Below, piece by piece: positions 5,225-45,300 of a stretch of DNA of 64,000 nucleotides; the stretch's first letter is position 1; every line of letters begins with the position of its first letter. Where the stretch lies: positions 321,560-385,559 of the forward strand of contig MU004202.1 in assembly GCA_010093605.1 (NCBI GenBank), written 5' to 3'. The stretch comes from Lophium mytilinum (Eukaryota). The notes under the pieces were generated by a model, which saw only the letters and a list, made by a program, of their open reading frames with translations, searched no databases and was not told where the DNA came from. A program made the translations under genes and the position numbers.

Positions 5225-7149
5225 GTCGCATGCCTTGGCTGTCGTGCCCGTAATCCGATTTCCTCAGCGGATACGAAACTTCCGTCTGGTGGTCGTGAAT
5301 GACAACGTATAGAAAGAGCGCAGTTGGCATGCTGCGGCACAATTCACTGATCTAGACGCCGTAATTGTCCACAGCAAAAAACTTTGGAAGTAGGCTTCAT
5401 TCTGGGACTGCCTAAACCCCAGCCTGATCGACGGATTCAGCCCGAGCTGCCAACACATTTGCACAAGCCACCAAGGCTGCTCACTGGCCCGCCAGAGGCT
5501 GCCTTGGCGCATTCGGGCAGTGCTGGATCTTGCCATTCTTTCCAAGGAACCCGGGTGGTTAGAGCGCAAATTGCGCCGTCGTATCGTGTGTTGGCAGGCT
5601 AAATAGGAGATACCCCAATGATGGGTTTACTAGAGTGTTCTGGTGAGAGTGTTGCCGCGTCGTCGGGGTGGCTCCGGACCGTACAGATTTCTCGTACAGT
5701 GGGTCTCGTACAGTCACGTAATGGGTTTATTGAGTCATGTCTGCGTATACTTTATCCCGCTGCAGCTAATTATATCACACCTGCGTATAGTCTATCACAA
5801 ACTCGAGATTTAAAAAAGCTTACGACAAGCCAGCTACACCAGCAAGGTCCCCTCCAAAGCCTTAAGCTGCTCCAAGCCTTGCGCGATTTCAAGGGCCAAG
5901 AAGGCTAATCCTACTGCGAACGGGAAGGAACAAGCGGCGGCGGCTGTTAAAGTTGCGTACTTGGAGCCTACTCGGGCCTTTCCAGCCCCCCTGCGCAGCA
6001 GGGGGGCCGCCAGCTCACCAGCTTCCTAGCTCACTAGCCGCGAACGCTAAAAATAGTAAATACTATTAGGGCTTAATATATCTAGGGGTTTTAATTCCTA
6101 ATAGTTTATTTATAGCGCGCACCTATTTTCTATATATAATTCTAATTACCTCTTACTTCTTCTAAAGCTTTCTATTTACCTTTTTCTATTATACTTTCTT
6201 AAGTATTAATTTACTCTTTTTAGCTACTATATTCTAAGCGGCGCCGGCCTATAGTAGGCCTATATTCTTAATTTATCTATATAGATTCCTTTTAGAATCT
6301 AATTAGACCTAGCTAGTAGCTATATAGCTAGCTAATTACCTATATATAATATTACCTACTAAGGCTATACTTTAGCTTACCTTTATATACTTAAGTATCT
6401 ACTTCTATTCTTTATTATTATTCTAGGCATTTAAAATTATATTACTAAGATACTTAAGTTCTTAGCTAGATATTAGTATTATAATATTATCTAAATCTTA
6501 GACTAGTAGTATTCTATTTTAGGGTATTATATTCTATATAGGTAGTAAGAATTAATAGAGAAATACTACCTAAAATAGCGCATAATATATTCTATACATA
6601 TTTTTTAATATTCTAGGCACTTCTCTCTATTATTATAGTTAATATTAGAGGTATTATAATAGGGGGGTGGCACGGCTTAGTATAGTTACTAAGCCGGCGG
6701 CCGGCTTAACTAGGTAGTAGTTTAATTAGGTTATTATATATAGAATAAAGATTAATTAATTAGATTAATTAAATTTTTAAATTAAACTATTTAAACTAGA
6801 TTAAAAAATAAGTAAATATAATTACACTTAGTTTAAATAGATAAGATATTAGATTCTACCTATAGAGCTATATAAGTAAACTAATAAAAGCCTATACTAG
6901 AAACCTTAAGTAATATAAGGTTTAATTTATAATTACTTTAACTAAGTTTCTAGTATAGGGAAATATATTAGAAATTATAATACTATAAGCCTCTAGATAA
7001 TATTCTATAATTCTAATATAGAATAACTTAATAACTAGAGAATATATAAATAAGCTAAGTAGTAGAAAATAAGTATAAGAACTAGAAGAATAATCTAACT
7101 AAGTAGAAATAATAATAGACTAAATATAAGGTAAATAAATTCTACTTAA

Positions 7150-9506
7150 AATTAAACGCTCTCTATCTCTATATATAGCTATTAGCGCATATAGACTTCT
7201 TTCTCTATAGTAGTAGCTAATAGCTTACTAGTATCTAGTTTATATATTCTTCTAGTATTACTAAATATCTACTTATTTTCTATAGCTATTATAGGGGCGC
7301 TATAGAGCTTAATAGCTAGCTAGAAGAAAATAGAATACTTAAAGCAGTAATTCTACTACTACTATAGTAGTGCGCTATAGTCCCTATTAAGAGGCTACTT
7401 AAGATAATAATCTAACTTATTCTTTTTTATATTAACTACTAGAGTTCTATATACTAGAAAATAGCTAAAGAAGTCTACTTTTAGTATATTAGCTAGCTCT
7501 AGGGTAATTTCTATTATATTCTATAGAGGTACCCTCTACGCATCTAATATAGAAAGGGTTAATTATATTTAATTTTTATAATTATTCTAGAGGTTTTATA
7601 TAGTATCTTTTATATTCTTCTTTTAGTAATTATAGCCCGCCTATTTATTATTAAAGTACTACATCTTTAATTAAAAATAAAGAATAATAGCTACTTAGTA
7701 TATAGATAGCTTATTAGTAAGGTAGTAGTAATAGCTTAATTTAAGGTAAGTAAAGTTATATATAGAGTTAAAGTAGTTATTCTATAGATAATTAAGGCTA
7801 GTAATATAGGCCTATATCTTCTTTATATACTTAAGAATAAAGTCTATTATAGAAAGAACCTTCTATAGAGTACTATAAGTTCTATTATAAATAGTATTAC
7901 CTTCTAGGTAAATTATAAAGTTATAGAGAGGCTCTAGAAAGGTATTAAAGTTCTTAAGCTCTTTCTAGTTATTATTAGTAATTAGATCTAGGTACTCTAT
8001 ATTTATATAGCGAGAGAGTATAAGGTCTATTATATTATAAAAAGAAAGAGCTATTAAAAAATTAGTATTTTTAATATGGAATTAGTATATAATAGAAGGC
8101 TAGTACTAGATAGCTAACCCCTTTTTACTATTTAGCTAATACTATATTACTATCTAGCCTATCTACCTCTCTATAAACCTTTTACTGCGTTCTAATTAGC
8201 TTAAATAGCTTATAGAAAGGTCCGGCTATTTACTCTATATATATACTATAGCCTTTCTATTTTATTTATAGTCTTTCTATTTTAGTATAGCTATATTTAT
8301 AGCTATCCGCCTACCTATCTATCTATCTAGAAAAATACCTAAACTATTAATTTTATATTTAATAGAGGCCTTTTCTCTATTACTACTAGCCTATAAGTAC
8401 CTATATAGAGTTCTTACTAATAAGATCTTCTATATACTTATTAAACTTCTTATTAGCAGGCTTATAAGCTACTTTATAAGGCTATAGTAGGCCTCTACCC
8501 TTATAGTCTATACTCTAGAGAAGCCGGCCTAGTAAGTAAGCTAATTAAAATATAGTAAAAGGTCTATAAGAAAGTAGATAGACTAGATAGTAATATAGTA
8601 TTAGCTAAATAGTAAAAAGAGGTTAGCTATCTAGTACTAGCCTAATAGAATCTATACGTATAGTAATAAAAAATATTAAGAAAAAAAGTATATAAAGAGC
8701 GCTAAGACCTAGAAATCTAGGCTAAAAATAGATAAGATTTACTCGCCCGGAGGCTTATATAGGTTAAGAATATATACTCTATATAGAAATTTAAAAATAG
8801 TATTAAATCTATACTAAATTAGATAGAAGTTAAATATAGTAAATTATAAAGAGCTATTCTTAAAGAGTATAAAAGAAAAGAATTATAGGTATAAAGAAAG
8901 GGTAATAGATTTTAGATAATAGAAGATATATAGAATAAGGCTATAAGTATAAAAATAAATACTATTTATAGAGCTTAAAATATACCTTATATAAAAATCT
9001 ACTATATTATTAAATTTCTACTAAATTAGACTAGAGTTAGATATAGAAGATTATATAAAGCTATTCTTTAAAACTACTAAAGAAGAGAATAATAGAAGAA
9101 GAAAAAGAGTATTAGGTAGAGGTAATTAGAAAGTATATAGAATAATATAATAAAAAGTCTATTTATATCTAAACTAATTTATATATATATAGTATTCTAC
9201 CTTACTTCTCTATCTAGAAGTACTATATAGAATTAGAAAAAATTATTAAAGCCTATCTTAGAGAATAGATAGGTATTCTAGAGCTTATAGAACTTCTTAT
9301 ACTACTTAGAACTTTATTTAAGCTATATATATATATTATAAAGCCTTCTAATTAAGGCTTTTAACTTCTATAACCTATACTCTTTATCTAGGCCTACGCT
9401 AGCTAGTCTTTTCTTAAATTTACTAATATTATTACTATAAATCGCCGCCTTTACTACTAAGTTAAAGATATAGCTAGAGTAATAGATATAGTAGTAAACT
9501 ATATTA
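7150..9506 (-). pseudogene. hAT transposase relic, C-terminal half (CxxH, RWN, dimerization domain)
   Basis: Minus-strand reading with RIP reversal gives RIRCSGHIFNLVVKAA (~9445-9490), EVRWNT (~9190-9205), DDDWKELENF..FLEPLYDFT..LEG...GALWEVLP.MDFIL (~7830-7990) and WWQNHRFEYP.FFQLAIELYSAPAM.AENER.FS (~7255-7365). Boundaries approximate. Confidence 0.85.
8098..8642. mobile_element. 545-bp MITE with ~60-bp TIRs and 8-bp TSD (hAT-like), nested in the hAT element
   Basis: GGCTAGTACTAGATAGCTAACCCCTTTTTACTATTTAGCTAATACTATATTACTATCTAG at 8098 and its inverted copy ending 8642. TAATAGAA at 8090-8097 and 8643-8650. Confidence 0.9.
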
Positions 9507-11407
9507 TATAGGGGGCTAATATAATATAAGTAAAAAGGTATATTAACTATTATAAAAATCTAAGCTAAGAAGAAGAGAGAGAGCTAGGAGCTCTTAAGAG
9601 GTTGTAGTTTAACACCGGTGTATAGGCTATAGCCTAGCGCCTTAGGCTAGCGTCTTACTTAGGTTATATAAGGGGCGGCATGTAACCTTAGTATATAATT
9701 ATTATAATTCTAGATTTATACTATAATACTACCCCCCTCTTTAAAAGCTAAAGTTCTATAAGGCTTATAATATATTATAGCTTCTCTATTCTTTCTATTC
9801 TATTTCTATTAAGCTATATATATAGCCTTACTATTTATATACTTACTATATCTATTATTTCTATTATTTCTATTATTATATTAATTCTTATATTTATTTT
9901 TAAGCGCTGTAAGTAGGCTATATAAATTAACCTAAGGCCTATTATTAGCTTCTATCTATTAGAGTTCTACTTTAGGTTACCTATATAGAATAGCCTTCTT
10001 ATAAAATAACTTAGCTACCTAATAAGGTTACTATTTATACTTACTTAGGCTAGTACTAAGAATATTCTATAGGCCTACTATTACTATAGTAGTATTTATA
10101 CTTTTACCTATTATCTTTATAACCTTCTATTTAGATATACTAAATATTAAATAAGGTTCTACTTTAAGGCTATACTTATTATAATACTCTATAAGAAGCT
10201 TATTATAGCTATCCGCGTTCTAGTAAGGTTTCTATTTAGGCTAGGTATTATTATAACTGGTCTAGGCTATCTTATATATAAGGTATAGTTTCTTACCTAT
10301 ATATAGATTTAGTTAGCGGCTATTAAATCTAGAATTAAGGACTTTATTAATATAGTACTACTCTATAAAGCTATCTTCTTCTATTTTAAGTATAGGTAGG
10401 GGTTCTAAATATTATCCTAGAAGAGGTAGATTCTTATTAATTTAATAGAGTAGCTATAGGTAGAATACTAGAAAGATTTCTTTTATAGAGTTAGAAAGTT
10501 CTAGCTTATAGGCTATATTATTAATAACTTATATTATATAAAAGGGACTAAGATTCTTATAGTTAAGAGACTTACTTAGCCTTATAGTATAAATATTCTT
10601 AGTATTAAGTATAACTATATTATTAATCTTAAACTTAAAAGCTAGTAGGTGGTTCTAGTTAGCTAGTTTCTTTATCTTAGATTAATTCTAGTATAGTTTA
10701 CCTTTAAGGAACTTATATAAATTATAGATCTATATAATAAGCTTCTTAGTAGTATCTATACCTTATTTCTCTAGGCCTAGTATAATAATTCTATAGAAGA
10801 AAGGTTTAAGGCTACTTCTAGGTATATATTCTTTAGTAGCTTTAAATAGTAACACGCTAGTAGACTAGTTAATATTAGCGTTAGCCTTAAATTTAGTAAA
10901 GATAATAAGGTTTATCTAGTTATCTTATAGGTAATAGATATATACGTGTAGGTACTACTTTAGGCCTATATTAATAATTTTAGTTTATCTATTAGTCTCT
11001 AGATAGGCTATAGTAGATAGCTTTAGATATATTTCTATATACTTATATAGGTACTTCTAAAAGAAGAATATAAACTATATACTATAGTTAGATATAATAT
11101 AGTCTATATTATAGGTAGTAAGGTATAGAGGTATATAGAATAAAAAGTAGAATTATATTATAAAACGTGCTATAAGAAGCTAGAGTATAAAGCTACTTAT
11201 AATCTATCTAGAGAGGCATATTAGTAGCGGAATAATAATATTTCTAGCGAGCATATAATAGCTAGGGAAAGAGGCCTAGATCTATTATACTACCTCCCTC
11301 TTTAAAGAGAAAACCCCCTCCTCTAAATAAGAGTTATATAAACTATAAGATAAAAGTAATTATAGGCTTTAAAGCTATAGAGAGAGTATAAAAACAGCTA
11401 TAATTAA

Positions 11408-11481
11408 AAGGCTAATTATAATAGAAGGGCTAATTATAATAGAAGGGCTAATTATAATAGAAGGGCTAACTATAATAGAAA
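11408..11481. repeat. Four tandem 18-bp units (GGGCTAATTATAATAGAA) near the 3' end of Gypsy B
   Basis: Directly visible tandem repeat. Confidence 0.85.
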
Positions 11482-14400
11482 GACTATATAAGGTTATAGA
11501 GTTAAATATTAGTAAGTATTTTACCTATATATTAGTAGCCTTTATAACCTTAGTATACTTAGCTAGAGTTATTAGTATATACTATACTATAACCTATAAT
11601 TATAGATAAACTTATACTCTTATAGTAGCGTACTTATAATATTACTAGGTAATAACCTTCTTTAATAACTTAGCGGAAACCGTGTAGTAGAGGATCTAAT
11701 CTAAAGTAAAGAGTTTAGTCTTACTTTAATTAGCTAGCTAACCCTATAGCTTACGTTATTATAATCTTTTAAGCTATTAACTTTAACTAATTCTAGCTAT
11801 AGAGCTATAAATTATATAGCTAGTTACTTAGTATTATTTAAGTTCTTATCTTTCTTATATTACTATCCTACTAGTAGCTTTAGAAAGTCTTAATGCGGCC
11901 CGTTCTTTTATAGGTATAGTTAATAGAATCTCTATACTAGTTTACATGCTCCTTAAAAGAACTTCTAGTTCTTCTAGTTTTCTAGCGCTATATAATCTAT
12001 CTACTATAGTTTATACTATAGTTTATAATATTATTCTTAGCTACGCTAGCAACTAGTAATAATATTCTTAATAGAATACTCTATCTACTCCTCTTCTTCT
12101 TTATTAAGAACTATAATTAGTAGTAGCTCTAGCTATCTTTATTCTAGTATAGAAATAGAGTTATCTAGATAGAGTAAATATAGTAAGAATACTAGCTAAA
12201 CTCTTCTATTAATAAGATCTTATAGTAGCTTAAGCTTATATATAGCTTTATAATTAATAATATATTTAATCTAGTAGGGGCCTATATTCTTATAATCTAA
12301 GGACTTATTTTTATACTTTATCTTAATATTCCGTGTGTTAAGCTAAACCTAATTATCTACTTTTATTAATAGCGGGGGGTTCTAATATTAATTTATAAAC
12401 TCCGCCTACTTATTCTTTATCTAGGTTATCTATTACTATCCCTCTACTAGCACTTTCTAAAGATACGTAATATATTAATTAGCTAGTGTAAGATTAACGC
12501 GCGTGTAATAGGCTAGCCCTTATTATAATAGAGCTAGTAGTTTAATACCTTATTATAAATAGAAACTATAATTAAAAAAGAATAGAAAGAAGCCTATTAA
12601 GGTGTTAACTATATTATTCGCAATAAATTTACTAATAGAAAGTTAGTTAACCTAATTATTCTACTAGTAGTTAATAAAAAGCCTAAGGAAAGCTTTTATA
12701 AATAAGTTTATGTTCTCTATCTATCTATCTATTTTAGGGTAATAGGCTATTAATAGCTTTAGGTTAACGCCTAAGCATATATAAACTCTTTACTAGAAGT
12801 TAGAGGTAAAATTAGTGCCTTAATTACTAATAATTTATTATAGTAGACTATAGAGGCGGAAGATCTTATAGATAAACGCGTTAGCAACGTCTTTTACTAT
12901 TATGCCTGCTATTAGAATATAGTATTATTACTTAGACATATAATTAATTACAACTAGAATAGATATATATTTAATACTATTTCTTATATAGGGAGAAAGA
13001 TTTATAATAAAGTTAAATATAATATTAGTCTAGTAGTATTCTTCTATAGAAAGACTATATAGTAGTCCTTACTTCTTACTTCTAGAGGCTTTAGCTTAAT
13101 AATAACTATAGTAGGCTTTTATAAATTACTTAATAGAATCTATTATCTTTAGCTAGAAATAGTACCTCTAGAGAAGCTTATACGTGCTATACTTATCTAG
13201 ATAGCCGCTAGCTAGTATAATATAGGCAATCTATATTAATTATAATTATAGGGCTATATAGTCTAGTATAAATAATTAACTATAATAGTATAACCTTATA
13301 TTAGCTTTCTTACTAATAACCTTAAACGCGCCTATATTAAGGTTTCTAATAACTTATTATAGTACTATAGAAATAGTACGCGCTCTATTCTATATAAGTA
13401 CTATTAGTATATATATAGTAGAATCTATTAGCTTTTCTAGTTCTAGTAGAATATAATAAGCGTTACTAATTAGATTACTAAGTATCTATTCTAGCTCTTT
13501 GCTAGGATTAGGCTAGTTAGGTTAATTTACTAGAAGGGCGCCATCTTATAGAATAGCTAGCGCGAGCTAGAAGAAGCTAATATATAAGCTTGCGGCTAGT
13601 AATAGATTAAGTATAAGATAATAAGGTAATTCTTTAAATAATAAGCTTAAATAAGAGTTAGCTATTAGGCTACTTATTATATAGCTTATTTATTTAGTTT
13701 TAGCGTTATCTATATTATCTACCTAGAGTTTAGCATTAGTAATAGATAGTATAATTCTAGGGCTAAGGTAATAGCTTTTTAGTATTATTTAGTATTAAAA
13801 TTAATTCTATAGATTATTAGGTTCTTAGGGTAGGTCCTATAAATATCTAGTAAGGCTATCTAGTTTAATACTAAATACTCTAGGTTAATATATAATTTTA
13901 AAATTAAAGCCTATAAGAAATTCCGCCTATTAGGCCTAACATCTATTAAGTTGCTTTATAGTTATAAACTATTCTAGATTTTAGTAATCTATAAGGATTT
14001 CTATAGAGTCTTTAGAATTAGCACTAGCTAGTTTAGGTCTCTACTATTTAAAAGCTTTAATAATTGCGAGAAGCTTCTTATTATATATCTTATAGTTTAT
14101 TTCTTATAGTAATATCTTTATTAAAAAGAAGGCTATAGAATATAGAAGGCTGTCTTCTTCTATTTATAATATAACGCTGGCTATAATATAGTTAGAAGCG
14201 TCTATCTTAACGTAGACCTTTTTACTATATTAAAAGTAAGTAAGTATAGGTACTAAAGTAAACGCTACTTTAAGAGTCCTAAAGGCTGTCTTGCAATTAT
14301 TATTCTATTAGAACTTAGGCTAAGATTTACCTTTCTTATTCTTTTTTAATATATTATTACTAGTTATATATATTATTAAGGTTAGTAGATATATAATTCT

Positions 14401-17400
14401 AGAGAAACTATATATAAAATAGTAATAGAAGTTAGCTAGGCTAAGAAACGCCTATATATCTTTAATACAGGTTAGGGTTTACTAGCTTATAATTACTTTA
14501 ACTTTATCTAGGTCTATATAAATTCCTTTAGTAGTAATAATAAGGCCTAGGTACTTAACCTATTTAATGCTAAATTTAGATTTATTAATATTAGCCTGCA
14601 AGCCGTGCTTGCGCAGTTATTAGAGAACCTTCTTAATGTGCTTTTAGTGCTTCTTCTTATCTATAGAGTATATAAGGATATTATTAAGGTATATAGAATA
14701 GAAATTATCTAGATAGTTATATAGGGCGTTATTAATATAGCCCTAAAATATTACTAGTCCTCTAGTTAATCTAAATAGAAGGACCTTTAATTTAAATATA
14801 CTATAGCGTGTAGTAAATTCTATAAAATATTTATTCTCTAGTCTTATTCTAATTCTATTAAAAGCACTAATAATGTCTAGCTTAGTAAACTATTTAGTAT
14901 AACTAAGCTAGTTTATAGTTTCTTATATTAGTGGAATCGGGTATTATAATTTAACTATAAGGGTATTTATAGCTTAGTAGTTAATATAGAATTATACGCC
15001 GCTGCCTAGTTTCCTAATAAGGAGGATTAGTAATAAGATATTAAATTAGGCGGGTTTAATAAAGCCTTTTATAAGATTATTATCTATCTATTTCTTAATA
15101 ACTTGTAGCTCTTCTTTTAATATTAAATAAGGCCGGGCCCGTGGAAGCTTCTCCTCTGCGCCTAGAAGTAGGTAAATCTTATAATCCACGCTAGGTTAAT
15201 TTAGTAGAAGAGTATTTATATTAGTTTAATTAAATATATTAATATATAGGTAGTATTCTTTTAGAAGCTTATAGAGGATTTTATCCTTTATTATATATAT
15301 CTTAGCGCGGAGGAACTTATTAATATTAGTTATTATAATAGCGTTAACGCGTTCTAGAATATTAGTGCTTTATTAGATAATAAGCACCTAGATACTATTA
15401 TTATAGATAAGAATATTATAATTATTATCTATTTCTTATAAAATATATAGTAGAAGTTCTTTTATATTCTATTCTTTCTTTATATATATATAAGTTAGGC
15501 CGGCGGATATATAATATATATTATATTATATATCTATACTTATTAAAGGTACTATCTTTAGTCTATATAAGGGGCTCTAAGTTATTATAGTACTCTATAT
15601 TATATAGTAGCTATAATAGTATAGTTAGAAGAAATTAATATAACGTTTATGCTAGTTAATTATAGGGTTATATCTATCTAGCTATTTATATCCTAGAATA
15701 AGGAAGGCCGGGCCTAGGTTTATAATAAACGTCTCTATCTATTTAGCGTGCCTATTAAGGTTAAAATAGATAAGCGTAATATAGGTAATCTTCTTAGCTA
15801 CAGCGCCTCTATTAGCTAGTTCTAGTATATAAGCGCGGAGTAAGAGAATTAGGAGTAGGTTATAGGTATATATGTAAGTAGTATTAATAAAGATATATAT
15901 AGCTCTACTATTAATAAGTAAAAGAGTAGGTATTATAGAAATAGGCTTACTATTCTTATATATCTAGACGTCTCTAACTAGCTTTAGATAATAATTATTC
16001 TATAGAGTAATATCTATTTAAATTAATACTTTACTAATTTTAAGAGTCTCTATAGAATCTAGCCTAATTTTATCTAGCTTATTAATTATACCTACTACTT
16101 CTTTATATATTAACTATATAACTAGTATTATATTACTACTACTTACTATAGGCCCTAAGTTGCGGCTATAATCTAGAGCTAAGTATTTCCCTATTTATAG
16201 CTATAGCCTTAACCCTATAGATTAGCGTTATTTATAGCGTAAATAGCTAGAGCGCCGGGCTAGGCTTAATAAGAATAGTTAGGGTATTAATTAATAAGCT
16301 AAGCTATAGAGTAGTTAGGGTTTCCCTTTTTATACTCTAGTATATAATAATAGTAGTAACCTTCTATAGCTTTAAGTGCGGCGCGCTTATTATTAGTAAG
16401 AATGCCTAGGGGCTACTAGTCTATAGAAATATTAACGGGGCCCTATAGCTAACTAGTATAGAAATTAATATTATTATCTACTTCTACTATAGTAATAGCT
16501 AGCGGAGTATAGCTTATATTTATTATAGTTAGATTATATAGAGTATATAGCGCCTAAGGCTAAATATAACTATTATACTAATAGCTTCTATATTATCCCC
16601 CGCGTTAATAGCCTCTACGCTAGTAATCTCCGCGCTAGTATTCTTACTATAGCTAGAAAGGAGATAGTATATATATATTATATATAGTATACGCAGTGCT
16701 ATTATACTAATAATAGTATATAGCCGCTACTATATCTAATATAGTAGGAAATAATTTACTATCTACTACACCTTTAGTAATCTAGAGTAGAGAGAGCTTA
16801 TAGAGTATTCTTATAGTATCTTTATTATAATTCTATTATAGTATTATATTAGTTTATTCTTCTATATAGCTATAGAAGTTATCTATATTCTTACTCTTTT
16901 ACTAGTATAGGTTGCATAATATCTTATAAGTAGTAGCTTCTATATTAGGGTTAAGAAATTAGGCGTCTATAAAAACCTAACCTTTATTTAGCGTGTATAG
17001 CTTATTTATAGATATCTACTATAATATTATAAACTTACTAGTAATAGAGTTAAGCTTAATTCTAGATACTATATATATAAGCTGCGCAGTATCTATAGTA
17101 AAGGCGCGTTCTCTACTAGTAATCTTAAGTATAATATAGCCTTTCTAGCCTAGGTATATAGCTTTATTACTATTAAACTCTAGTATATTAGTAATATAGT
17201 TTTATAATAGTAATTATAACTAATAATACTTAAATTAGTATTAGCTGCAACTCTAAAGATTATTATTATCGCTAGAGAAGCTATTAGAGCTAGAGCTAGA
17301 GCTACTAGAATTGCTAAAGTCTAGGTTATAGCGCTTCTTTTTTTATAACCTAGACTTCTTAGATTACTTTTTCTACTTAGAATTATTCTAATCTATTATA

Positions 17401-18895
17401 TTATAGTCCTCTAGTAGTAGAGGTAGTGCGCCTTCTAGGCTAGTTATAGTTATTATAGTAGGGAAGAACCTATTAATTATATTAGAACTAGTAGGCGCTA
17501 TAGCTTTCTTTAAAGTTATAGCTATTACTATAAGTATAGGTCTAGTAGGTATTGCAACTAGAATAGTAGCTAGTATAGTAATAATAGCGCGGCGTTTAAG
17601 CTATATAATCTTACCTTTAAGAGCTTTAATTATAATACCCTAAGTCTTATAAGCTTTCTTTATAGACTTAAAGTTTTCTTTTTAGATAGTAACCTAAGTA
17701 ACTTAATAGTTATATTTAATTCTTAACTTTTTAAGCTTTATCTTTATCTTCTTAAGCTTATACTCTAGCTTCTCTATATTAGTAGCTTACTCTAGTATCT
17801 TATCTACTTTAAAAGCTAGCTCTAGCTCTTATATAATTAATTTATCTTTAAATAGTTAGATTTAGTCCTTAGCTAATACATTAGTAAGCGCATCCCGCTT
17901 AGTAATAGCAGTATTGCGTTAGGATTTAATATCTTCTTATACTTTCTTAAGTTTAACTATCTAGGCGGTAAGGGTTTTAACTTATTTCTCTAGAATCTTA
18001 ATTTTATTTTCTTTCTTCTAAACTAAGTTCTATTTAAGATTAAGCCTATCTTAAAGGGTCTTATAGCTATATTTAGTATTCTTATATATAATTTCCTTAC
18101 GCTATACTTATAGCTTATATTCTTAAAGAATCTAGTATTACTTCTTAGAATTTACCTTAATAAGTATAAGGTAGATATTAGCGTTATTAATCTAAATAAG
18201 TTTAAGCTTCTTAGCTTAGCTAACTATTAAGTAGTTAATAAAAGTAAAGTCCTCTATAAAGTAACCTAGTATAGTTCTTATTAGTTCTATTAGCGTATTA
18301 CTAACGCAACGGGCGGGGGTATTAATCTTACTTATTAGAGGCCTATCTATACTATATTTATCTATAGTTTTATCTATAGTAGTATTACTGCCTTTAATAT
18401 TTTAAGTAAATATAGGCTAGCTATAATCTATAGTATTTAATATTTACTAAGTCTCTTCTAGAAGTTCTATATTCTGCGTAAACTACTCTACTTATAAGTA
18501 TTATTCTTTCTATAACTTCTTCTTACGCTAAAGGCAACCTTATAATAGTAAGACTAATATCTAGAGTTAGTTATTATTAGAGTTAGTAGAGAAAGTAGAA
18601 TAAGTATATAGAGGCTTATAGTTAGACTTAATATAGATAGGGTTTTTCTTATTTACTATAATAAGTAGTAATAATTAATCTATAGATTATAGAAGGGGAT
18701 AGAGTATATATAGCGTAGTGCTAAATTAGTTAGTAATATAGAGGGGGTAGAGAAAGAAGAAAGTAAGTATAGTAAGTAGGCTTAGAGAAAGTAGCTATAT
18801 AGCTAGAGCTAAGTTAGGTTTCTATATATAGTAAATAATTACTAATTAAAAAGCTACTTATTTTAGTAATTCTAAGTAAGTATATTATAGTCTTA

Positions 18896-25122: not shown

Positions 25123-25124
<2 letters not shown>

Positions 25125-33984: not shown

Positions 33985-36900
33985 CTATCTAACTAAGTAG
34001 TATAAGTATATTAGTAAGCTACTTAATATAGCTATAGTAGAGGCGCTTAATACCTAGAACTTCTATACTATTAAGGTAGACTTCTAGAATATAGAAAGCC
34101 CTATTACCTTTAACCTTCTTCTAGATTTATATAATATTAAGAACCTAACTATAAAGCTAGAAGGTACTATATTCTAGAGCTTATTTAAGTTCTATTAATA
34201 GATAAACTCTAAGCTACTTAAAGCCTTTAAACTACTACACGCGCTAGTTAAGAGTACTAATATCTATATTAATAACTACAGTGCTAGCTTAAAGAAATAG
34301 AAATATATATCTATAAACCTTTATAAGAAGTTTAATAATATAGATAAGAAACTTAGAAACTTAAAGATCTAGCTTAATAACTTTAAGCTTAGCCTCTAGG
34401 CTGCCTAGGCGCACGTATATAACCTCTAATAATAATAGTCTAAGCCTACTAAGATATCTAAAGAACCCGTTTATTTTAACAATAATAAGCGGCGCGATAA
34501 TAACGTTAACTATTAGTGGATAAACGGCGGGGCCGGAGAATAACCCCTAGGTAGGCCTAATAACTATAGTTATAATAGCTATAATAATAATACCTATATA
34601 GAGCCTATATATACTTCTTCTACTCTATATATAAACCTCTATAGTAGTAGTAACTAAGTCTACTATTCTACCTCTCTATATAATAAATAATTAGATAACT
34701 AATATTATAATAATAGCTACTATAATAGCTATACTCTACTATATATTTAGCTACTATTATTAATATTCTACTAGTGCACCTACTACTAGCTGGACCCGGT
34801 TATATTTAATAGAGAGGACCTAGATATATATCTAATCTAGCGTAGTAAGGTTCTTACTAAGATTTACTACGCCTTTTCTAATAAGATAGATAACTATAAG
34901 CTTAATTATATTAAGAGCGTTCTCTTAGGCGGACCCTTTAAGCGCATTTAGGTATACTACTATAATTAGGTTATCTATAATAAGATTAACGCCCTCTATT
35001 CTCTAGATAATAGATATAGTAAATATAATATTAAGGCTAAGGCCCTATTATAGCTAGAAACTCTTTATATAGGTAATAATTTATTTACTATATTTTATAA
35101 CTATTTTCTAGATATTACTAGTAACCTTAACCGGGGGGCCGCTAAGCTTATCTATTAGTTTAAGACACATCTTATACTATATCTATAATTTAAGCTTATT
35201 AATAGCGTAATATATAATTATTTTAATAATTTTATATAATATATCTATACTATAGATATATAGAATATAGCCTTCTAGTAGGCTAAGAAGTATAATACTC
35301 TTATCTTCTAGCTCTATTAGACTACGGCGTTAACTATAATAATAACTACTTAATCTATCTATAGTAGGGGCCGTAGCTATAGCAGCTACTTATCTACGCC
35401 CGCTATAGGTGCTAATATAATAACTTTAACTATAATAACCTTAACTATAATAACTTTAAACGCCCTATAGGCTTCTACTATTATAGCTATAGCTAGTATA
35501 GAATAGCGCCTATATGCTATAAACCCGGCGGATAAACTAGCGTATATTTAAAGTATTAGTAAGCTTACTAAGAGTAATAAGAAAAGAACGCGCGTAGCTA
35601 GCGCTTATAACTGCTACCGCTGCGTTAGTTATTATACTATTAATAATAATTACCCCCTCTAAAACTTCTCTATTTAGATAACTAGCGGCCTTTCTCTCCG
35701 CGCTACTAATACTATATTTTCTAGCTAGGAAAATAAGTAGTTCTTAAGTATAGTTGCGCCTAAGGACTTATTATAATTAATTATAAAATAACCCTATTAA
35801 TTACTCTATTATTAACTCTATTATTAACCCTATTATCTACCCTCTATTCTATACTAACTTTCTCTAAGTGCGGCAACTTAGTTTCTATAGATAATAACCT
35901 TCTAGAACTATAAAGAAAGGACTAGAAACTATATAAAAGCTACTATAGGGGTACTAAATATAGAATACCTAAAAAGTACTAAATAAAGAAGGTAGTAGAA
36001 CCCCTACTATAATTTAATACCCTCTTTTAGCTATAGGAAGTTCTTAAGTATATTAAGAATAATAAGAACTAGCTAGAACTTTATATTTCCGCTATAGCTA
36101 TTATATATACTTAGCACGACATTATAAAGCTCTAGCTAAAGAAAGGTAGTTAGTACTTACTTTCTTATTCTATAGTATTAGATAGTAATTAAATTATTTA
36201 TACTTACTCTCTCTCTAATAATAGTATAATATTCTCTTTTATTAATTAATTATTTACGCGTAAATATAAAATATATTATATTCCCCTTAATTTACCTTAC
36301 TACCTAATATATATTAATAATTTTAATTCTACCTAATCTATTATATACGCGGTAATTATTAATATTACTATAGGCTTCTATATAGAATAATTAATCTACT
36401 ATATAGTAGACCTAGAATATATACCTATAGTACTTAGTACTAATTAGTATAAAACCTATAACCTAGAGATTAACTTTATTAAGAAAAGCTTCTACTTCTA
36501 TTAATTATAATACTATAATCTATACTACTATAGTAATAGCGTACCTATAAAGATCTTCTATAAGGGCGCTATATAGCCCGCCGGGCTAGTTAAACTTTAG
36601 TCTATATTTCTATTTATAATATCTATTAGTTCTATAGAACGCTATATTTAATATACTAAACCTAAAGACCTTATTTAAATCTATAGGCTAGAGTTTATTC
36701 CTGCACTAGATAACTCCTTATTTAAAACACCCGTAATAGGATATATTATTAACGTCCTAGAAGGGAACAGCACGCTTAAGCTGCACGCCTTATTAGTTAA
36801 TAAATATAATAAGTTTATAAAAGAACGTAGAATATATTTATTAGATAAACTATAGAAATAATTAAATAAGTATTTCCACCCTTAGGTTAATATATAGTTA

Positions 36901-39900
36901 TAATAGGAAGCAGGAAACCTACTACTATACTATAACTATAACTATATAATTCTTCTATAACTAGACGCCCTACTACCTAAGTATAAGACCTAAGCTATTT
37001 TAAAAGAGAAGAACTATATTATCTATAATAAGCTCTAGAAGCTACTTAGTAATAGGTTTATTAAGAATAGTAATTCTTCTACGCACGCGCCCGTGCTTCT
37101 TATTAAGAAACTAGATAGAACTTACTAGTTCTATGTTAATTACCGCGGCCTTAATACTATTACTATAAAGAATTAATACCTAATTCTAATTATCTAGAAG
37201 ACGCTTAACTATCTCTATAAAGCTAAATAGTACACTAAATTAGATATTATTTCTACCTTTAATCGCGTACGTATTAAGCCTAGTAATAAATAGAAAATAG
37301 TATTTATTATATGCTATAGAATATTCTAATCTAAAGTTTTAAAATTTAGCATATATAACGGCCCTAGTACTTTCTAGATATTTATTAATAATATATTATA
37401 TAAATACCTAGATAACTTCTATTTAGCCTATATAGATAATATATTAGTATTTATAGATAGAACTAAGAAGGACTATATTGCCTATATATAAAAAGTCTTA
37501 GACTAACTATATAAGGTAGGCCTCTTTCTTAATATTAATAAGTGTAAATTTCTTATTAAATGTATTAAATACCTTAGCCTTATTATTATAACTAAGGGCG
37601 TTAAGATAGACCTAGATAAAGTTAAAGTAGTTACTAAATAGGCTACTTCTATATGCCTTAAGAACGTTTAGGCCTTTTTAGGCCCAGCTAATTTCTATAG
37701 GTAATTTATACAGGGCTTTTTATAATTATATAAGCCGCTTACTAACCTCTTATAGAAAGAACTAGACGGGCGTATCTATTTTAAATAGATAATAAGCTAC
37801 TAAAAGGCCTTTAATAACCTTAAAATAGCGTTTACTACTACGCCCTATCTTAAATACTTTAATCCTAACTAGAAGTTACGCATTAAAACTAACGCATCTA
37901 ACTATATAGCTGCAGGCATATTCTTACAGCTATATAATAATAGTATATAGCACCCGGTTATATTCTACTCTTATAAAATAATACTAGTAGAGTATAACTA
38001 TAAGATTTATAATAAAGAGTTGCTTACTATTATTCTTACCTTTAAAGAATAGAAACTATAGTATTAAGGTAATAAATACTAGAAACCTATATAAGTACTA
38101 ATAGATTACTAAAATCTATTATACTTTATAATAACCTAATAACTAAACTAGCGGTAGATGCGCTAGCTCTAGATTCTCTTAGAAATTAACTACGTTTTAA
38201 TATACCGGCCTAGCTGCCTAGAAACTAAACTAGATAGTCTTATGCGCTGCAGCTAAGATCTACCGCAATCTAATAATAATAAATAATTTCTATTTTAATA
38301 ATAAACTATAATTAAAATAAAGAACCTTACCTCTAAGGTATTAAAAGAGCTCTACCTCTATACTATAGGCGTTATAAGTTATAACCGGCCCCTATATAAA
38401 CTTATTAAGGAGGCCTATAATATAGATAAGGCCGCGTTCTAGAAGGGGGGCAGCAACCTAGATAACTAGTTAGATAACTATCTAGTCTACTATATTATAG
38501 CGCTTAAGTAACGCAGTAATTAGAAGCTTCTACGTAATATTCTAAAGGATAAGCGCGTCTAACTATTAATAAGTAAGCTAGAGGTTATAGATAATAAACT
38601 ATAGGTCCTCTATAAGGACTTCTAATAACTATTTATACTATAGTTAGCTATACTCTAGCTTTAAATTATATAGCTAGAATATAACTATACTAGTATAGGT
38701 TATAGAGGCTATATAGACTGCCTCTAGTATATATACTCTAGCTACTACTAGCTATAGTTTACTAAATTAATTATAACCTATATTAACACTTACTAGCGCT
38801 ACTATAATATTAAGCCCTCTAACTTTACTAAGTAAGGTTTCTTATGCCTCTTACCCGTCCCCCTTTATTACTAGCGTAATATTACTATAGACTATATAGT
38901 TAACTTACCTATCTATAAGTATTACGGCCGTAAGTATTATTATATACTAGTTATAATTAATAGACTCTTAAAAGAATATTACTTTCTTACTATTACTTTA
39001 CTAGAAGTAGATAAGCTAGCTAAAGTCTATTTCTAATAGATCTATTAACTATATAGACTACTAGCGTCTATTACTAGCAATCTAGAAATATAATTTACCT
39101 TTAAATTCTAGCAATATTTCTATTATTAGATATAATTATTACTAAATATATCTACCGCTTTCTACCTAGAAACTAATAGTTAAATAGAAATTACTAATAT
39201 AGATATAAAGAAATACCTATAAGCCTATATTAACTATATATAGAATAACTAGTATAATTTACTACCTTTAGCTAAACTTATAGCTAATACCTATATATTA
39301 ACTACTATAGGCCTATTACTATTCTTTATAAATTACAGCTATAACCCTTATTTAGAGCTTAAGCCACCTACTATTAAAAATAAGAAAATATCTAAAAATA
39401 AGGAAATTAAATAAGAACTAGCTAATAATATAGCTAAACGCCTAAAAGATATTAAGGTCTATCTATAGAACCGCATTATATAGGCTTAAGAGGAATAAGC
39501 TTACTAAGCTAACTACTACTATAATGCAGCTATAGATATATATATTAATAATATAGTCTAGCTTAACGCTAAGAATATTAAACTAGACCGCGCTAAGAAG
39601 GCTCTTAATAATAAGTTTATAGGCCCCTTCCGCGTTAACAAGGTTATTAATTAGGGCGCGGCCTTCTAATTAGACCTTCTATCTAATACTAAGATCTATA
39701 ATATCTTCTATTCTTTATTATTATAGCTTAATACTTCTAAACCTATTAAAGAATAGAATTACCCTAAGCCTATACTGCTACCTAAGCTAATCTAATAAGA
39801 GAATAATAATAAGCTAGTAGAGGAATTTATAGTCGCCTAAATTATTAACTTACGCGTTAAGAATAATAATATCTAATATAAGGTTTACTATATTAGTAGT

Positions 39901-41279
39901 ATATAACTATATAGATTCTAGTAACTATTTAGAAATTTTAAGGGCTGCCTCTATAAGGTTTTTAACTTCTATTATTATAGCCTATAGAAACCTAAACTAC
40001 CCGCTTACTTTATTAAACTAAAGAACTAGACTCTACCTACTTAGAACCTCTAGAATATTACTATATTATTATAATAGTCTAATATACCCTAAGATTCTAC
40101 GCCGCTATTAGATAGTAGAATTAATTAAGAATATCTACCTATACTAGTTTTATTAGCATACTCTACCTATATATAGAGCTACGCCTATATTAGCTATCTA
40201 ATATATAAGTTTAAATAGTAAGTCTTTTTTCTATAAGTTTTTATAGAAGCTTAGTTTTTTAAAGGGGGGGCATATATTATATTATTTCTTAGTATTCTCT
40301 TAGTAGTTATTAAGGTTAGAGGTTATTATATATATAGACATTATATAATCTCTAGGCTAAAGATTCTTCCAGCGCCTAGGGTTCTACCGGCGCGCACTTA
40401 ACTATATAGTAGGCTTGTAGCCGGAGCCTCTTTTCTCTCTACGTAACCTTATTAATAGAAATATAACTCCTTTCTAGCTATAAGCCTAATACTAGGTTAA
40501 GTTTATTAGTAATAGTTTAGTTCTAGTTCTAGTTTATAGATTTAGTAGTATTAACTTAATTATCTACTAAGTATTTAGGGCGCTAGATATCTATATACTA
40601 AGTATTATCTATAGTTTATAAGAAGGCTTAGATATTTAGAATTAGTTCTCTAGTTCTATATTATAAGCTAGAAATAATAGCTAGAGTAGAAGAGCCTTTA
40701 GCTACACCTTAAAAGTATATAAGTTGCGCAGCCTAGTAAGCTTTCTTATTACTAGTAGTTAATAGAGTTATAGAAGTATAGGTAATTAGTAGTCCTTTTA
40801 AAGTATTTAAATTAGCGCTATTTATAGTGCTTAGAGTCTTTAGATTATCTTAAAGCCTAGCTATTAGATTAACTAGCTTATTTAAAGAAGGCGGTGCTAG
40901 ATTATCTACTAGATTAAGTTTAGGTGCCGCGCGTAGCTATATAGCTAGGCTGGCTAGTATTTAAGTTATTTTAGTAAAAACGCCTAGATCTTATAATAGA
41001 GTTCTAGAAAAAATTAGTAAGATTCTAAGTATAGAAGAGTAAGCTTAAATTATATAGAGGGCTAATATAATATAAGTAATAAGGTATATTAACTATTATA
41101 AAAATCTAAGCTAAGAAGGAGAGAGAGAGCTAGAAGCTCTTAAGAGGTTATAGTTTAATACTAGTATATAGGCTACAGCCTAGCGCCTTAGGCTAGTATC
41201 TTACTTAGGTTATATAAGGGGCGGTATATAACCTTAGTATATAATTATTATAATTCTAGATTTATACTATAATATATTA

Positions 41280-42393
41280 AAGCTATAGTTTATAGTAAGT
41301 AGCCTAATTACTATATTATTAGCTATATAGTTATTAGCTATAAAGAATTCTAGATTATAAAAGATTCTATACTATTTAAATACCTTTCTAAGAACCTCTA
41401 TATAGTTCTTTCTATTTTTAAAGCTAAATATTTTAGGTAGAGTAAGAAGTAGTATCTATTTATAGCTATATATATTATTAAAGTAGATAACTATAGAATA
41501 TATAGTAATTATTTCTTATAAGGTCTAACTATTAAAGCCTGTATATATATAGCTTATAGATAATTCTATAAGCTTAGTAATCTTCTTATAAGTAGCTCTA
41601 AAGTATACTTAGAGCTAAATATAAGTTATATAATATAATATAGGTACTATATTATTAGCTAGTAGATAGAGAAGCTATAGTAGTTATTATAGCTTAAAGC
41701 TTATACTTAATTACCTTAAAATACCTTTCTTAATAATATACTCTAGATATAGCTTATAGGTAACTTTTAAGTTATATTTATTTACTATAGAAGCGTATAT
41801 AGATATATAAGAAGTAGCGCCTATAGAGGTAATAGCTAGGTTCTTAAAATTAAAGAGAATACTATTCTATCTAATATTATAAAATTTAGTAAGATAGGCG
41901 GCTTAATATATAGTAGAAGACGCGGTAAAAATATAGTTATAATAAGCCTTACTCTTAAGACCTATATATATATTAGAAGCTAAAATAGCTATATAAATTA
42001 AGTAGGGGTCCCTATACTTATTATAAGCCTAGTAAGTATAGCTATTACTATTCTTTATAGCGTATCTAAAGAACTATATATATAAGTATTAATTTTAATA
42101 GTAATAAAGCTAAGAAAGTATATATCTAGTAGAAAGGTTCTTTCTCTAGATAGATCTTATATAGAGAGAAAGCTAAGGTTTAGAACCTCTATAGCCCTCT
42201 TTATAGAAGTTACTATAGTTCTTCTAAGATAGAAAGAGGTCTCTTACTATATAAACTAGAGTAATAGAAGGCTTCTTAGTAGTAGAAATTACCTTAGAAT
42301 TAAAAGACTTTAAAAGATAAGTTTCTAGAGACTCTATAGATAAAAAGAAGAATATATAACCTAGAGAGAGTAGTATAGAAGAGCTAGAAGCTA
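41280..42393 (-). pseudogene. hAT transposase relic, N-terminal half (BED-like zinc finger and first two catalytic Asp)
   Basis: De-RIPped minus-strand reading gives YWACNEC...AAHLAKFHNI (~41875-42035), GFDGWTS (~41520-41539) and FFMADNHAAND (~41315-41347). Probable start near 42393 and a short intron near 42080-42125 are approximate. Confidence 0.82.
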
Positions 42394-45300
42394 TACTAAG
42401 AAATAATATAGTTAAAAAGCTTAGCTATAAGAGCTAGAGGTTAATATTTTTCTTACCTCTATCTAAGAAAAATAATAAGCTACTTCTACCTTAATAGTAG
42501 TATTCTAGGCCTCTACTATATAAATAATAGCTAGAGAATAGAGTTAGAGCTCTATTACTTTATATAAAGTATAAGTTAATAGATATAATAAAGACTAGTA
42601 AGTATTAGAACTATTAGAGTTAAAAAAGATAGTAGTTTAAATCTTCTAATATTCTTAAAATAAGAGATTTAATAATATATTTATAGAAAAAACACGTATT
42701 ATAGTATTATAAACGCGTTATATTATATATTATAACTATAAAAAGTCTAAATATACTCTAAAGTAGCTAAAAAGATTTCTATAGACTTATATATTATATT
42801 TATATACTTTATAGATAGATAATTAGACTATTATAAGTTATAAAGGTAGTAGTATTAATAAGAAGTATATTATCTAGTTTATTATTACTTAGATCTCTAT
42901 ACTAAGGCTATTACCGCGCTCTACTAAGCTAATAGAATTATATTATTTTACCGCTCTAATATTCTACTAGCGGAGGTGGAAGAATATATATTACTAGCCT
43001 TATTAACTATAGCTCTAGCCCCTTCTCTAGTATAATACTATAATAAGTTAAGTTTAAATAAATACTATAAATTAATTTCTATAGGTTAAATTATATTTAC
43101 TATATATTACTAGGTCTTCTAGGCCTTAAAAATGCGCCCCTCTTTAGTACTCTATATAATATTTCTATAGGTAATTCTAAGGCCCCTCTTACCTAGAACC
43201 TTACTACTATAGGTACTTTTATATTACCTACTAATATAGAGTACTCTAGAGTATTATCTATAAGTATAGTAAGTATATATAATAATAATTTACCTATAAA
43301 AATCTATTAAAATTAGTAAGAATCTTCTCTATATATATCTATATTTAGCCTTTCTATTTTACTTTATTCTTTCTATTTTATATAGCTAATTAGATTAATA
43401 AAACTACTTTATACTTAGGCCTTAATTAGCTATAGTAATAGTAGTAGTATAGTAAGTATATATATAAAAATAGAAAGGCTATATATAGCCTACTAGTAAA
43501 ATACTAGCTATAAGCTAAGCCTAATTTAGGGGCTATTACTAACTGCCTAATTTAGTTAGAGTCTTTTAGCGAGCTAATTAGATTATAAGAAAACTTAATA
43601 CTACCCTACTTTTTAGTTTCCTAATTAAAATCTATTACTACTAAGTATTCTTACCTACTATTTTTATACTTTTATTTAAAAATTTATAACTTTATTAATT
43701 TCTATACTAAATTACACTAGATTCTAGCTTAATAATTCTTAGACTTAGCGCTATTCTTTACTAAAAAGTAAGAAGTAAAAAGAAAGTAACCTTATTAGAA
43801 ATTAAATCTATAAAAGAAGACCTTAGATATAAGAGGTATAATTCTTCTAGCTAGCTTATACTTAGGTAAAGGCGCTTTATCTTATACTAAGATAAAGGCG
43901 CTTTAACTACTACTAAGTTAACTAGTTCTATATTTACTATTATAAGGTCTTATATTAAAGAATAGCTAAAAATATTTAATATATATACTCTAATATAAAT
44001 AGCTAATTAAAATAATTAAATTAATCTATAATTAAGATTTAATTAGCTATAGAATTAATCTAATTAGACTAACTATAAGTAATATTAATAAACCGGCTAT
44101 TAATCTAATTAAGAATTAGCCGGTTTACTAACTATGCTAGTATAGCTAGTAAGCTAGAAAGCTAGTAAGCTAGCGGCCCCCCTACTGCGCAGGGGGGCTA
44201 GAAAGGCCCGAGTAAGAGGGAGGCTAAGATTTAACAAGACTAAGAAGACAAGGTAAATAATAAGCTAGTAGCTAAGGTTACCTTTTAGCGTTTATAGTAT
44301 ATAATCTAGTCTACTAGTATAGATTTTTAAGATAGTAATATAGTATACGCGCCGCATAATATAATAAGCTGTGCAGAATATAATATACGCAGGCGTAATA
44401 CAATAATAGCTTGCACGTGACTGTACGAGACCCACTGTACGAAGCCAACTGTACGAGAAATCTGTACGGTCCGGAGCCACCCCGCCGCGTCGTCCTCTTG
44501 GAAGGCGCTGAGATGGCCAGATGCCGGTGCGAGAGGGACAACCAAGTTGTGTTCTTTACACAGCTGTACAAGCTGTATATTGCGGTCGGTCGATTCCCCC
44601 AGCCTCCAGGCTTGTAATCTTTCTAAGTGCGACCTGAATTCTCGATATTCGGTTAATATTCGGGTGCATGCACTTGATGTACGGGTCTACTATTGCAGCT
44701 CTTTCCTACCATAAGCGTAGTGAACTTTAGACCTTTACAGCCTTTCTTACGCCTACTCTAGATGGGCTAGCTACACTTCTAAATATGTAGAATCGGCATT
44801 CGCTGTCCTCCAGGTTCTTACATCACGTGATCAGAAATATAACGCAGATTCCGACTAAATATAGAATGTTCTCTTCTATCCTGTTATCCATTTGTCTTGT
44901 ATTATAATGTCCAGAATACAAGAAACTAACTCCAACCCCTGGACTACAACACTGAAGCTATCTAATCCGTACCAGATCCGGAATCTATGCTAGCAACGCC
45001 CCCCCTTTTGGGTCATTCAGGCTCCTAGGCTCCAGCTAGCTTCTAGCTGCGCGCTTCCGGGTCGTCGGCCACACGCAGTCCATCCGATACGAGCGTCTCA
45101 GGCCCCAAGAGCCGTCGAGGATTTCAGCCTTGCTGAGGAATCTGTCATGTCTAGGCTCGAGCAGGTACCCTTCGGAAAAACTATCTGAGAGGGGAAGCTG
45201 GTGCTGCTAGAGCCTGTAGAGTAGGTTTATAGAAACGACTCCAATGATACATTATTAAAATAACAGAATACATGGCTGACCCAGATAATGACCTTAGCAA

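Follow-up and report, generated by a model that had tools for sequence, protein, structure and literature searches.

Nested retrotransposons in the intergenic regions of maize are said to have been described by SanMiguel et al. in 1996, with the order of insertion read from containment and from target-site duplications (TSDs). The analysis reported here concerns a nest of transposable elements (TEs) in Lophium mytilinum. It occupies 5654-44494 of a stretch of 64,000 nucleotides (assembly GCA_010093605.1, contig MU004202.1, positions 321,560 to 385,559 of the forward strand), called the window below; all coordinates are those of the window.

The AT-blocks of Leptosphaeria maculans are described, in the part of the genome paper used here (Rouxel et al. 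2011, PMC3105345), as mosaics of TEs mutated by repeat-induced point mutation (RIP). They form a 'nesting network' in which 85% of the nests are one level deep, and DNA transposons were invaded (23.3%) far more than they were invading (3.5%). The model given there is that decayed TEs tolerate further insertions, and that this positive reinforcement loop leads to large AT-rich blocks. The phenomenon is therefore already known, both the nesting in RIP-affected AT-blocks and the loop having been published in 2011. Most elements in L. maculans are described as truncated mosaics, whereas all eight elements of the L. mytilinum locus have both termini and are stacked six deep. As an instance of L. 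maculans-type nesting the locus is very clean, six levels deep and free of deletions; it reveals no new kind of element or mechanism and opens no new question. A first-pass annotation, made by a model from the letters of the window, had called the record unusually clean, which holds for the locus, the type of structure being already in print.

Structure of the nest

A self dot-plot, alignments and in silico serial excision resolved 5654-44494 into eight elements in six levels (Table 1). Level 1, of 575 bp, has terminal inverted repeats (TIRs) and a TSD of 11 bp (span 5665-44483), level 2 is a 772-bp element between TA duplications (span 5971-44212), and level 3 is a TIR element of 5.1 kb whose TSD measures 8 bp (span 6678-44139). 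Level 4 consists of a 545-bp miniature inverted-repeat transposable element (MITE) and the Ty3/gypsy element A (span 9507-41274). Level 5 consists of the Ty3/gypsy elements B and C (C spanning 24747-40491), both within A, and level 6 of the Ty3/gypsy element D within C. A nest of eight elements in six levels, ordered relative to each other by containment and subsequently mutated by RIP, is very probably the correct description of the block.

Every base of the 38.8-kb stretch is assigned to one of the eight elements or to a TSD copy. The element lengths (level 1, 575; level 2, 772; level 3, 5136; MITE, 545; A, 7635; B, 8378; C, 7173; D, 8567) together with 38 bases of TSD copies give 38819, the length of 5665-44483, and the outer element left after excision measures 304+2+269 = 575 bp. 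The first-pass annotation had proposed eight transposons in six levels with paired termini and TSDs throughout, a 575-bp outer element, nothing unassigned after peeling and no terminus-removing deletion. All eight were recovered in the same places with their termini intact, the 575-bp figure was reproduced, and the sum of the parts is exact. Two of the checks that it had suggested, a dot-plot of the terminal pairings and serial excision, gave the expected outcome, as described below.

Exact TSDs flank seven of the eight elements; those of the eighth (level 3) differ by three transitions in the direction of RIP. Random pairs of k-mers from the block are identical at a rate of 0.0053 (5-mers) or 0.00025 (8-mers), and of 0.0040 for 8-mers when transitions are allowed. 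Taken together, the set of TSDs is far beyond chance.

Self-comparison with blastn returned the inverted pairs 5661-5775/44487-44359, 5969-6038/44214-44145 and 8097-8203/8643-8537, and the direct pairs 9493-9728/41038-41274, 11077-11289/19278-19484, 24747-24971/40275-40499 and 25418-25622/33785-33990. These are the predicted pairings without extras, namely four pairs of long terminal repeats (LTRs), two long TIR pairs and the TIRs of the MITE. The other matches link four internal regions through collinear pol homology; three of these regions share a strand and the fourth is inverted. When transitions were ignored, the LTR pairs were 99.6-100% identical, the MITE TIRs 100% over 107 nt and the level-2 TIRs 100% over 76 nt. 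In this transition-blind comparison no new pairing that could mark hidden solo LTRs or further TEs rose above the shuffled control (best 63.9 bits); the matches above the control were gypsy pol homologies and some short tandem arrays and palindromes.

Elements A-D are Ty3/gypsy retrotransposons. They have LTR pairs (A 222, B 183, C 217 and D 200 nt), TSDs of 5 bp identical at 5/5 positions in all four elements, the order reverse transcriptase (RT) - RNase H - integrase, and a polypurine tract. The Pfam searches used translations with stops read as X. RVT_1, RT_RNaseH_2/RT_RNaseH and SH3_Tf2-1 follow one another in one frame of D (minus) and of C (plus), that is, in two of six translations, the other four giving nothing; the E values of RVT_1 are 6.6e-11 and 5.8e-15. 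In A, SH3_Tf2-1 was found on the minus strand in one of 12 translations with an E value of 5e-6 and 26.9 bits, below the Pfam cut-off of 30. With the pol of C as query, tblastn gave collinear minus-strand matches in A (21725-20622 and 11098-10481), B (15363-13813 and 13074-12223) and D (29298-26512), with E values from 6e-9 to 1e-74. The RT of A and the end of its integrase thus lie on opposite sides of B, as the nest demands.

A tract TTTAAAG(A)GGGG lies 2-4 nt before the 3' LTR of each of the four elements. Their LTRs all end in TA...TA, probably RIP products of original TG...CA ends. No common primer-binding site was visible after the four 5' LTRs, and no Pfam match to the Chromo domain was obtained in the gypsy elements, for which chromodomain targeting is not claimed. 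In pol alignments between the elements transversions outnumber transitions (A-D, 113 vs 71), and the LTRs of A-D do not cross-align above shuffles. A-D are accordingly different families of one clade, in agreement with the four LTR families of the first-pass annotation.

Removal of B with one TSD copy rejoins A, which then aligns with D without a gap at the junction. Single high-scoring segment pairs cross this junction (position 6035 of rejoined A) over 536 nt against D (71.8%, E 3.9e-61) and over 646 nt against C (E 7.6e-26). The junctions of C in A and of D in C, in 5' regions that have no cross-family homology, are placed by LTRs and TSDs.

The block carries the signature of RIP. The two LTRs of a pair are 89.1-93.7% identical, and over 822 aligned positions the pairs differ by 62 transitions, one transversion and no gaps. 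The ratio (CpA+TpG)/(ApC+GpT) is 0.00-0.17 in the block as compared with 1.21-1.29 in the flanks, and TpA/ApT is 1.6-2.0 as compared with 0.69-0.74; CpA depletion and TpA excess are confined to the repeats. Despite in-frame stops, the pol regions of D (26467-29121, minus) and C (37135-39711, plus) stay in register for about 850-885 codons from RVT_1 to SH3_Tf2-1, which indicates decay by point mutation and not by indels.

Order of insertion and alternative readings

The nest would be explained by the following history. The 575-bp TIR element would have inserted first, in the spacer between a HET-domain gene and an NLR-like gene, leaving an 11-bp TSD. The 772-bp element, non-autonomous and TA-targeting, would have entered this element, and the 5.1-kb element with the 8-bp TSD would then have entered the right TIR of the 772-bp element. 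Gypsy A and the 545-bp MITE would have inserted into the 5.1-kb element, B and C into A, and D into C. Each insertion would have been cut-and-paste or integrase-mediated and would have left its own TSD, with no later deletion removing a terminus. RIP would then have turned C:G into T:A throughout the repeated DNA, killing the reading frames and producing a GC content of 25-30%. The insertion order had been taken as readable in the first-pass annotation; this stands for the relative order given by containment, while the order of B versus C and of the MITE versus A cannot be read from the nest.

With rather more confidence than doubt, the block can be regarded as a deletion-free fossil series, in which a single sub-kb DNA transposon between the HET and NLR genes may have nucleated a 38.8-kb AT isochore by six rounds of TE-into-TE insertion, and in which RIP comes to a halt inside a transposon over about 50 bp (6043/6044), sparing the left half of the seed and the neighbouring promoter. 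Each step presumably took place at the locus, and insertion into older TEs may reflect either tolerance or targeting. The allele of the empty site, with the block removed, is predicted to read ...GTTGCCGCGTCGTCCTCTTG.... Should empty or intermediate alleles exist in other isolates, the locus could separate targeting of older TEs from mere tolerance, and could show how sharply RIP is confined beside living genes. If the fossil series is real, it would demonstrate the 'positive reinforcement loop' model at the level of a single locus. The locus is in any case a clean example for teaching, and software that annotates nested TEs could usefully be tested on it, with its eight complete elements, three kinds of TSD, four gypsy families and junctions that can be verified despite extreme RIP.

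The architecture could be right and part of the stack could still have arrived pre-assembled, for example as an outer element that already carried the TA element; this is unlikely, though it is the alternative that fares best. Composite TIR elements can be mobilised when their outer termini are intact, as they are here, and the tests that were run fit both histories equally. Packaging limits make the retrotransposition of very large composites unlikely, and movement of the 15.7-kb composite of C and D as a retrotransposon is accordingly improbable. Contigs from two runs (X1 and X2) of one sample, probably the source of the assembly, were also aligned to the window at 80% likeness; beyond the matches listed there are another 18 loose ends and 43 pieces. 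Among the matches listed, the outer element has no second copy at 80% or more, either alone or carrying a passenger.

The TIRs of this outer element match at 114 positions over 146/159 nt with one 14-nt indel. No paralogue of 5665-5968 at 80% or more was found among the matches listed other than its own right arm, in contigs of one sample in which RIP-diverged copies would be missed. The term 'MITE' used for the outer element in the first-pass annotation accords with its TIRs and 11-bp TSD; the high-copy family that the term also implies is putative. The label 'MULE-like' (Mutator-like element, MULE) derives from a TSD within the 9-11 bp range and from the long TIRs; copies sharing these termini with a MURA-encoding partner were not found at 80% or more in the contigs of the one sample.

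Several observations weigh against the nest and its history as given above. The LTRs of B (163/183 identical, 89.1%, with 20 transitions) are more diverged than those of its host A (93.7%), which contradicts a simple clock; RIP is not clock-like. The interior of the outer element, 5728-5935, is covered at 80% or more by the contig of the locus itself and by no other, which leaves a family putative. The pentamer TATTA is common (1.7% of positions), which makes the TSD of A the weakest, and the LTR boundary of A is ambiguous by up to 4 nt. Identity between the two LTRs of C continues for 8 nt (CTAGGTTA) beyond the end chosen, and 3 nt have to be accepted as coincidence. An integrase core (rve), protease and gag were not found at E<=0.01 in the X-read translations of the gypsy elements, from which RIP may have erased them. 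In the 5.1-kb body of level 3, none of 12 X-read translations matched any Pfam family at E<=5, and 8651-9501 matched nothing in Pfam at E<=0.01, while the gypsy elements, mutated by RIP to the same extent, still reach 1e-11 to 1e-16. The unity of level 3 is consequently argued from its TIR, its TSD and a subterminal motif, without a coding remnant.

Two candidate interpretations of the LTRs were rejected. Alternative ends for the LTRs of C (through CTAGGTTA) and of A (4 nt longer) yield no TSD. Dating by LTR divergence was set aside since the differences are RIP transitions and B would look 'older' than A; LTR divergence at this locus measures RIP dose, not age.

The level-3 data bear on a second alternative, in which the pairing of 6678 with 44139 is due to chance, there are fewer layers, and the 5.1 kb are a mosaic of terminus-less TE debris, so that the claim of no unassigned DNA and no deletion would fail. 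This is improbable, somewhat more so than a pre-assembled stack. The Pfam result just given speaks for it, the two octamers GCACGGCT and GTATAGCT agree at 5/8 positions, and most of 6800-8090 is without a paralogue at 80% or more among the matches listed. The TIRs match at 18/21 positions and begin with TAG; by estimate, two AT-rich regions of some 3 kb each would yield an inverted match of this quality about once by chance. Against the mosaic, however, stands the coincidence of this TIR in position with an adjacent octamer that is the same once RIP transitions are allowed for (chance 0.004), and the octamer GTATAGCT is the natural continuation of the inverted repeat in the right arm of level 2. 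The left terminus is also multi-copy, a paralogous contig of high depth covering 6685-6798. The motif TAATTAGATTAAT occurs in four exact copies in the window, all within level 3, three of them within 100 nt of its two ends and in inverted orientation; with up to one mismatch there are seven matches as compared with 1.32 expected, a number reached in none of 100 shuffles. Copies confined to level 3 and inverted near its ends argue that these ends belong together, and a single level-3 element is retained.

The 8-bp TSD and short TIRs of level 3 are those of a hAT element; a hAT transposase (C-terminal dimerisation domain or BED finger) was not found in the 12 translations at E<=5. Since 8-bp TSDs are also produced by other superfamilies and the body matches no Pfam family, 'hAT' is a guess from TSD length. 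The element should not be filed as hAT, and '8-bp-TSD TIR element' is the safe name. A possible second copy of the MITE in the body of level 3 was rejected: its transition-tolerant alignment scored 96.5 against a shuffle maximum of 66, and for DNA mutated by RIP mononucleotide shuffles make a poor control.

Level 2 is an independent multi-copy, non-autonomous TA element. In each run at least three other contigs match from 5968 or 5969 onward, that is, from the TA, and have unrelated GC-rich flanks, which marks level 2 as a mobile element in its own right. Further contigs cease to match at 5998 or 6002, and 6067-6178 and 6374-6506 are covered by paralogous contigs that differ by transitions. 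A joint 5719>5969 and a loose end at 5664 represent the right arm of the locus itself in reverse. The inverted repeat of level 2 measures 71-73 nt and is identical at 63/71 positions, with seven of the eight differences being C>T on the right copy. TA duplications flank these TIRs as in Tc1/mariner elements; no Pfam match, and so no DDE/D transposase, was found in the 772 bp. Going by the TA, level 2 is at best a non-autonomous Tc1/mariner derivative. Of the three DNA-transposon types in the first-pass annotation, the separate mobile element at level 2 stands; 'hAT' and 'MULE-like' go back to TSD length and TIR shape, and superfamily names for the three larger DNA elements are best taken as provisional.

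These contigs also bear on the third alternative, that levels 1 and 2 are a single element with partly diverged TIRs of about 380 bp around a 630-bp core, which would reduce the nest to seven elements in five levels. The segment 5665-6043 does align with the reverse complement of 44148-44483 at both ends, and there are hints of similarity (CTGTTAAAG vs CTTGTTAAAT) in the poorly aligned middle. A single element is nevertheless very improbable, since the contigs starting beside the TA have unrelated flanks and, among the matches listed, none of them reaches into 5728-5935. The inverted repeat, transitions ignored, is perfect from the first base after the TA on both sides, whereas the adjoining 5810-5966 and 44217-44322 differ in length (157 vs 106 nt) and barely align. 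Two separate elements are therefore kept at levels 1 and 2.

An assembly artefact, in which misjoined repeats would mean that the nest is not one molecule, is hardly credible: the block is repetitive, the contigs in it are short (113-1532 nt) and the runs probably come from the source sample, but the LTR and TIR pairs are each RIP-diverged (6-11%) and flanked by matching TSDs, which misassembly would not create at eight independent junction pairs, and the halves of A rejoin collinearly. Two junctions, level 1/2 (5671-6013) and level 2/3 (6619-8090), are also spanned by contigs showing 0 differences, which is not independent support in view of the probable origin of the runs.

Features of the block and its flanks

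The coordinates of the elements, their parts and the flanking genes are collected in Table 1.

Table 1. Parts of the nested block, in order of position, and the flanking genes
Feature	Position	Strand	Remarks
NLR-like gene	PigL_N/NPHP3_N/NACHT 3902-5224; ankyrin repeats 1-2733	minus	left flank
Left 11-bp TSD	5654-5664		GCCGCGTCGTC; outer element
Outer element, left part	5665-5968		TIR about 146 nt, repeated CGTACAG motifs; 50% GC, no RIP
Left TA	5969-5970		level-2 duplication
Level 2, left/main part	5971-6677		left TIR 5971-6043 (69% GC, unmutated); RIP-mutated interior 6044-6669
Octamer	6670-6677		GCACGGCT; level-3 target, end of level-2 left part
Level 3, left part	6678-8097		TIR TAGTATAGTTACTAAGCCGGC; motif TAATTAGATTAAT at 6757; last 8 nt are the MITE target TAATAGAA
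545-bp MITE	8098-8642		TIRs 107 nt, 95/107 (100% without transitions); TSD TAATAGAA 8/8 at 8090-8097 and 8643-8650
Level 3, middle part	8651-9506		ends with TATTA (target of A); degenerate tandem duplication 8755-9145
TSD of A	9502-9506 and 41275-41279		TATTA, 5/5
A, 3' LTR	9507-9728	minus	222 nt; polypurine tract AAAGAGGGGGG at 9729-9745, minus strand
A, 3' internal part	9729-11106	minus	integrase C-terminus: SH3_Tf2-1 about 10450-10618; tblastn match 11098-10481
B	11107-19484	minus	8378 bp; LTRs 11107-11289 and 19302-19484; TSD GTCTA; pol 15363-12223
A, central part	19490-24746	minus	RT/RNase H 21725-20622; ends with CTAGG (target of C)
TSD of C	24742-24746 and 40492-40496		CTAGG, 5/5
C, 5' LTR and internal start	24747-25417	plus	LTR 24747-24963; ends with CTATC (target of D)
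D	25418-33984	minus	8567 bp; LTRs 25418-25617 and 33785-33984 (186/200); TSD CTATC; RVT_1, RT_RNaseH, SH3_Tf2-1 in one frame
C, remainder	33990-40491	plus	RVT_1 about 37135-37585, RNase H about 37801-38180, SH3 about 39553-39711; polypurine tract; 3' LTR 40275-40491
A, 5' internal part and 5' LTR	40497-41274	minus	LTR 41053-41274
Level 3, right part	41280-44139		right TIR ends ...TAACTATGCTA; subterminal motif on minus strand at 44054 and 44099
Level 2, right TIR with octamer copy	44140-44212		RIP-mutated octamer GTATAGCT at 44140-44147
Right TA	44213-44214		level-2 duplication
Outer element, right part	44215-44483		37% GC, partly RIP-mutated; TIR with extra 14-nt CGTACAG unit
Right 11-bp TSD	44484-44494		GCCGCGTCGTC; 11/11 identical to left copy
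HET-domain gene	45459-47291	minus	right flank

The GC content is 25-30% from about 6044 to about 44400 and about 50% in the flanks. The whole block had been called AT-rich in the first-pass annotation, which is accurate from 6044 on; the first 380 bp or so (5665-6043) are GC-rich (50-69% GC) and not RIP-mutated, and the AT-rich block proper begins at 6044. RIP affected the two sides unequally: in levels 1 and 2 the left arms are unmutated (50% and 69% GC) and the right arms partly mutated (37-60% GC). At 6043/6044 the GC content drops to 25% within about 50 bp.

The near-identical polypurine motif is found at 9729-9753, 11290-11314 and 25618-25642 (minus) and at 40250-40274 (plus), in four families whose LTRs nonetheless cannot be aligned. 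Tandem repeats are present in several elements: a 23-nt unit repeated about six times at 18866-19030 near the 5' end of B, a 36-nt repeat also in B (11390-11486), an 80-nt repeat in D (33267-33427), and a unit of about 200 nt in the degenerate duplication in level 3 (8755-9145).

The block is intergenic. Its distances from the neighbouring genes are about 430 bp (upstream of the NACHT/ankyrin NLR-like gene) and about 965 bp (downstream of the HET-domain gene). No open reading frame of at least 70 codons was found in 6044-44139, and hence no candidate effector gene. NLR-like and HET genes are types of gene involved in fungal non-self recognition, and both frames are intact beside 38 kb of RIP-mutated DNA. 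These genes and the signature of RIP would, taken together, indicate a filamentous ascomycete. A search of metagenome contigs with an unchanged 20-nt query from the left flank gave five loci, all of them chance matches in unrelated GC-rich, prokaryote-like DNA. At two of these loci the 20-nt match lies between identical repeats of about 30 nt and looks like a CRISPR spacer of an unrelated prokaryote, with no bearing on the block.

Comparison with known systems

The outer element resembles MULEs in its 11-bp TSD, long TIRs and repeated subterminal motifs; it differs from them in showing no transposase remnant, and it is single-copy in the contigs searched. Level 3 shares with hAT elements the 8-bp TSD and the short TAG... 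TIR and differs from them in showing no transposase remnant. Level 2 may be set beside small non-autonomous Tc1-mariner elements such as DTT_Finwe-3 of L. maculans (806 bp, 29-bp TIR; Table 4 of PMC3105345), sharing the TA duplication and a size of about 0.8 kb. About the outer 30 nt of the level-2 terminus are common to other genomic copies, as compared with the 29-bp TIR of DTT_Finwe-3; the likeness, judged from the description in that table, is one of size and TIR length, the level-2 repeat at the locus being 71-73 nt long.

Elements A-D share with fungal Ty3/gypsy elements (Metaviridae) that carry a Tf2-type SH3 domain the LTRs of 183-222 nt, the 5-bp TSDs, the polypurine tract and the order RT > RNase H > integrase C-terminus. 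They differ in that all are dead, with hundreds of stops per frame; no integrase core, protease, gag or primer-binding site can be recognised in them, and a chromodomain was not detected.

The nests of maize share with the locus the insertion of LTR elements into LTR elements, but they formed without RIP, and the base of the stack at the locus consists of DNA transposons, unlike that of the LTR nests of maize. LTR divergence in plants can date insertions, whereas at the locus it reflects RIP.

The locus is more AT-rich than the L. maculans AT-blocks (25-30% GC vs 33.9% on average; PMC3105345), and the LTR and element sizes of its gypsy elements match no family in Table 4 of that paper. As portrayed in the part of the paper used here, the L. 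maculans blocks are likewise AT-rich and gene-poor, lie between GC-equilibrated regions, and consist mainly of RIP-mutated Ty3/gypsy elements that have invaded each other (PMC3105345).

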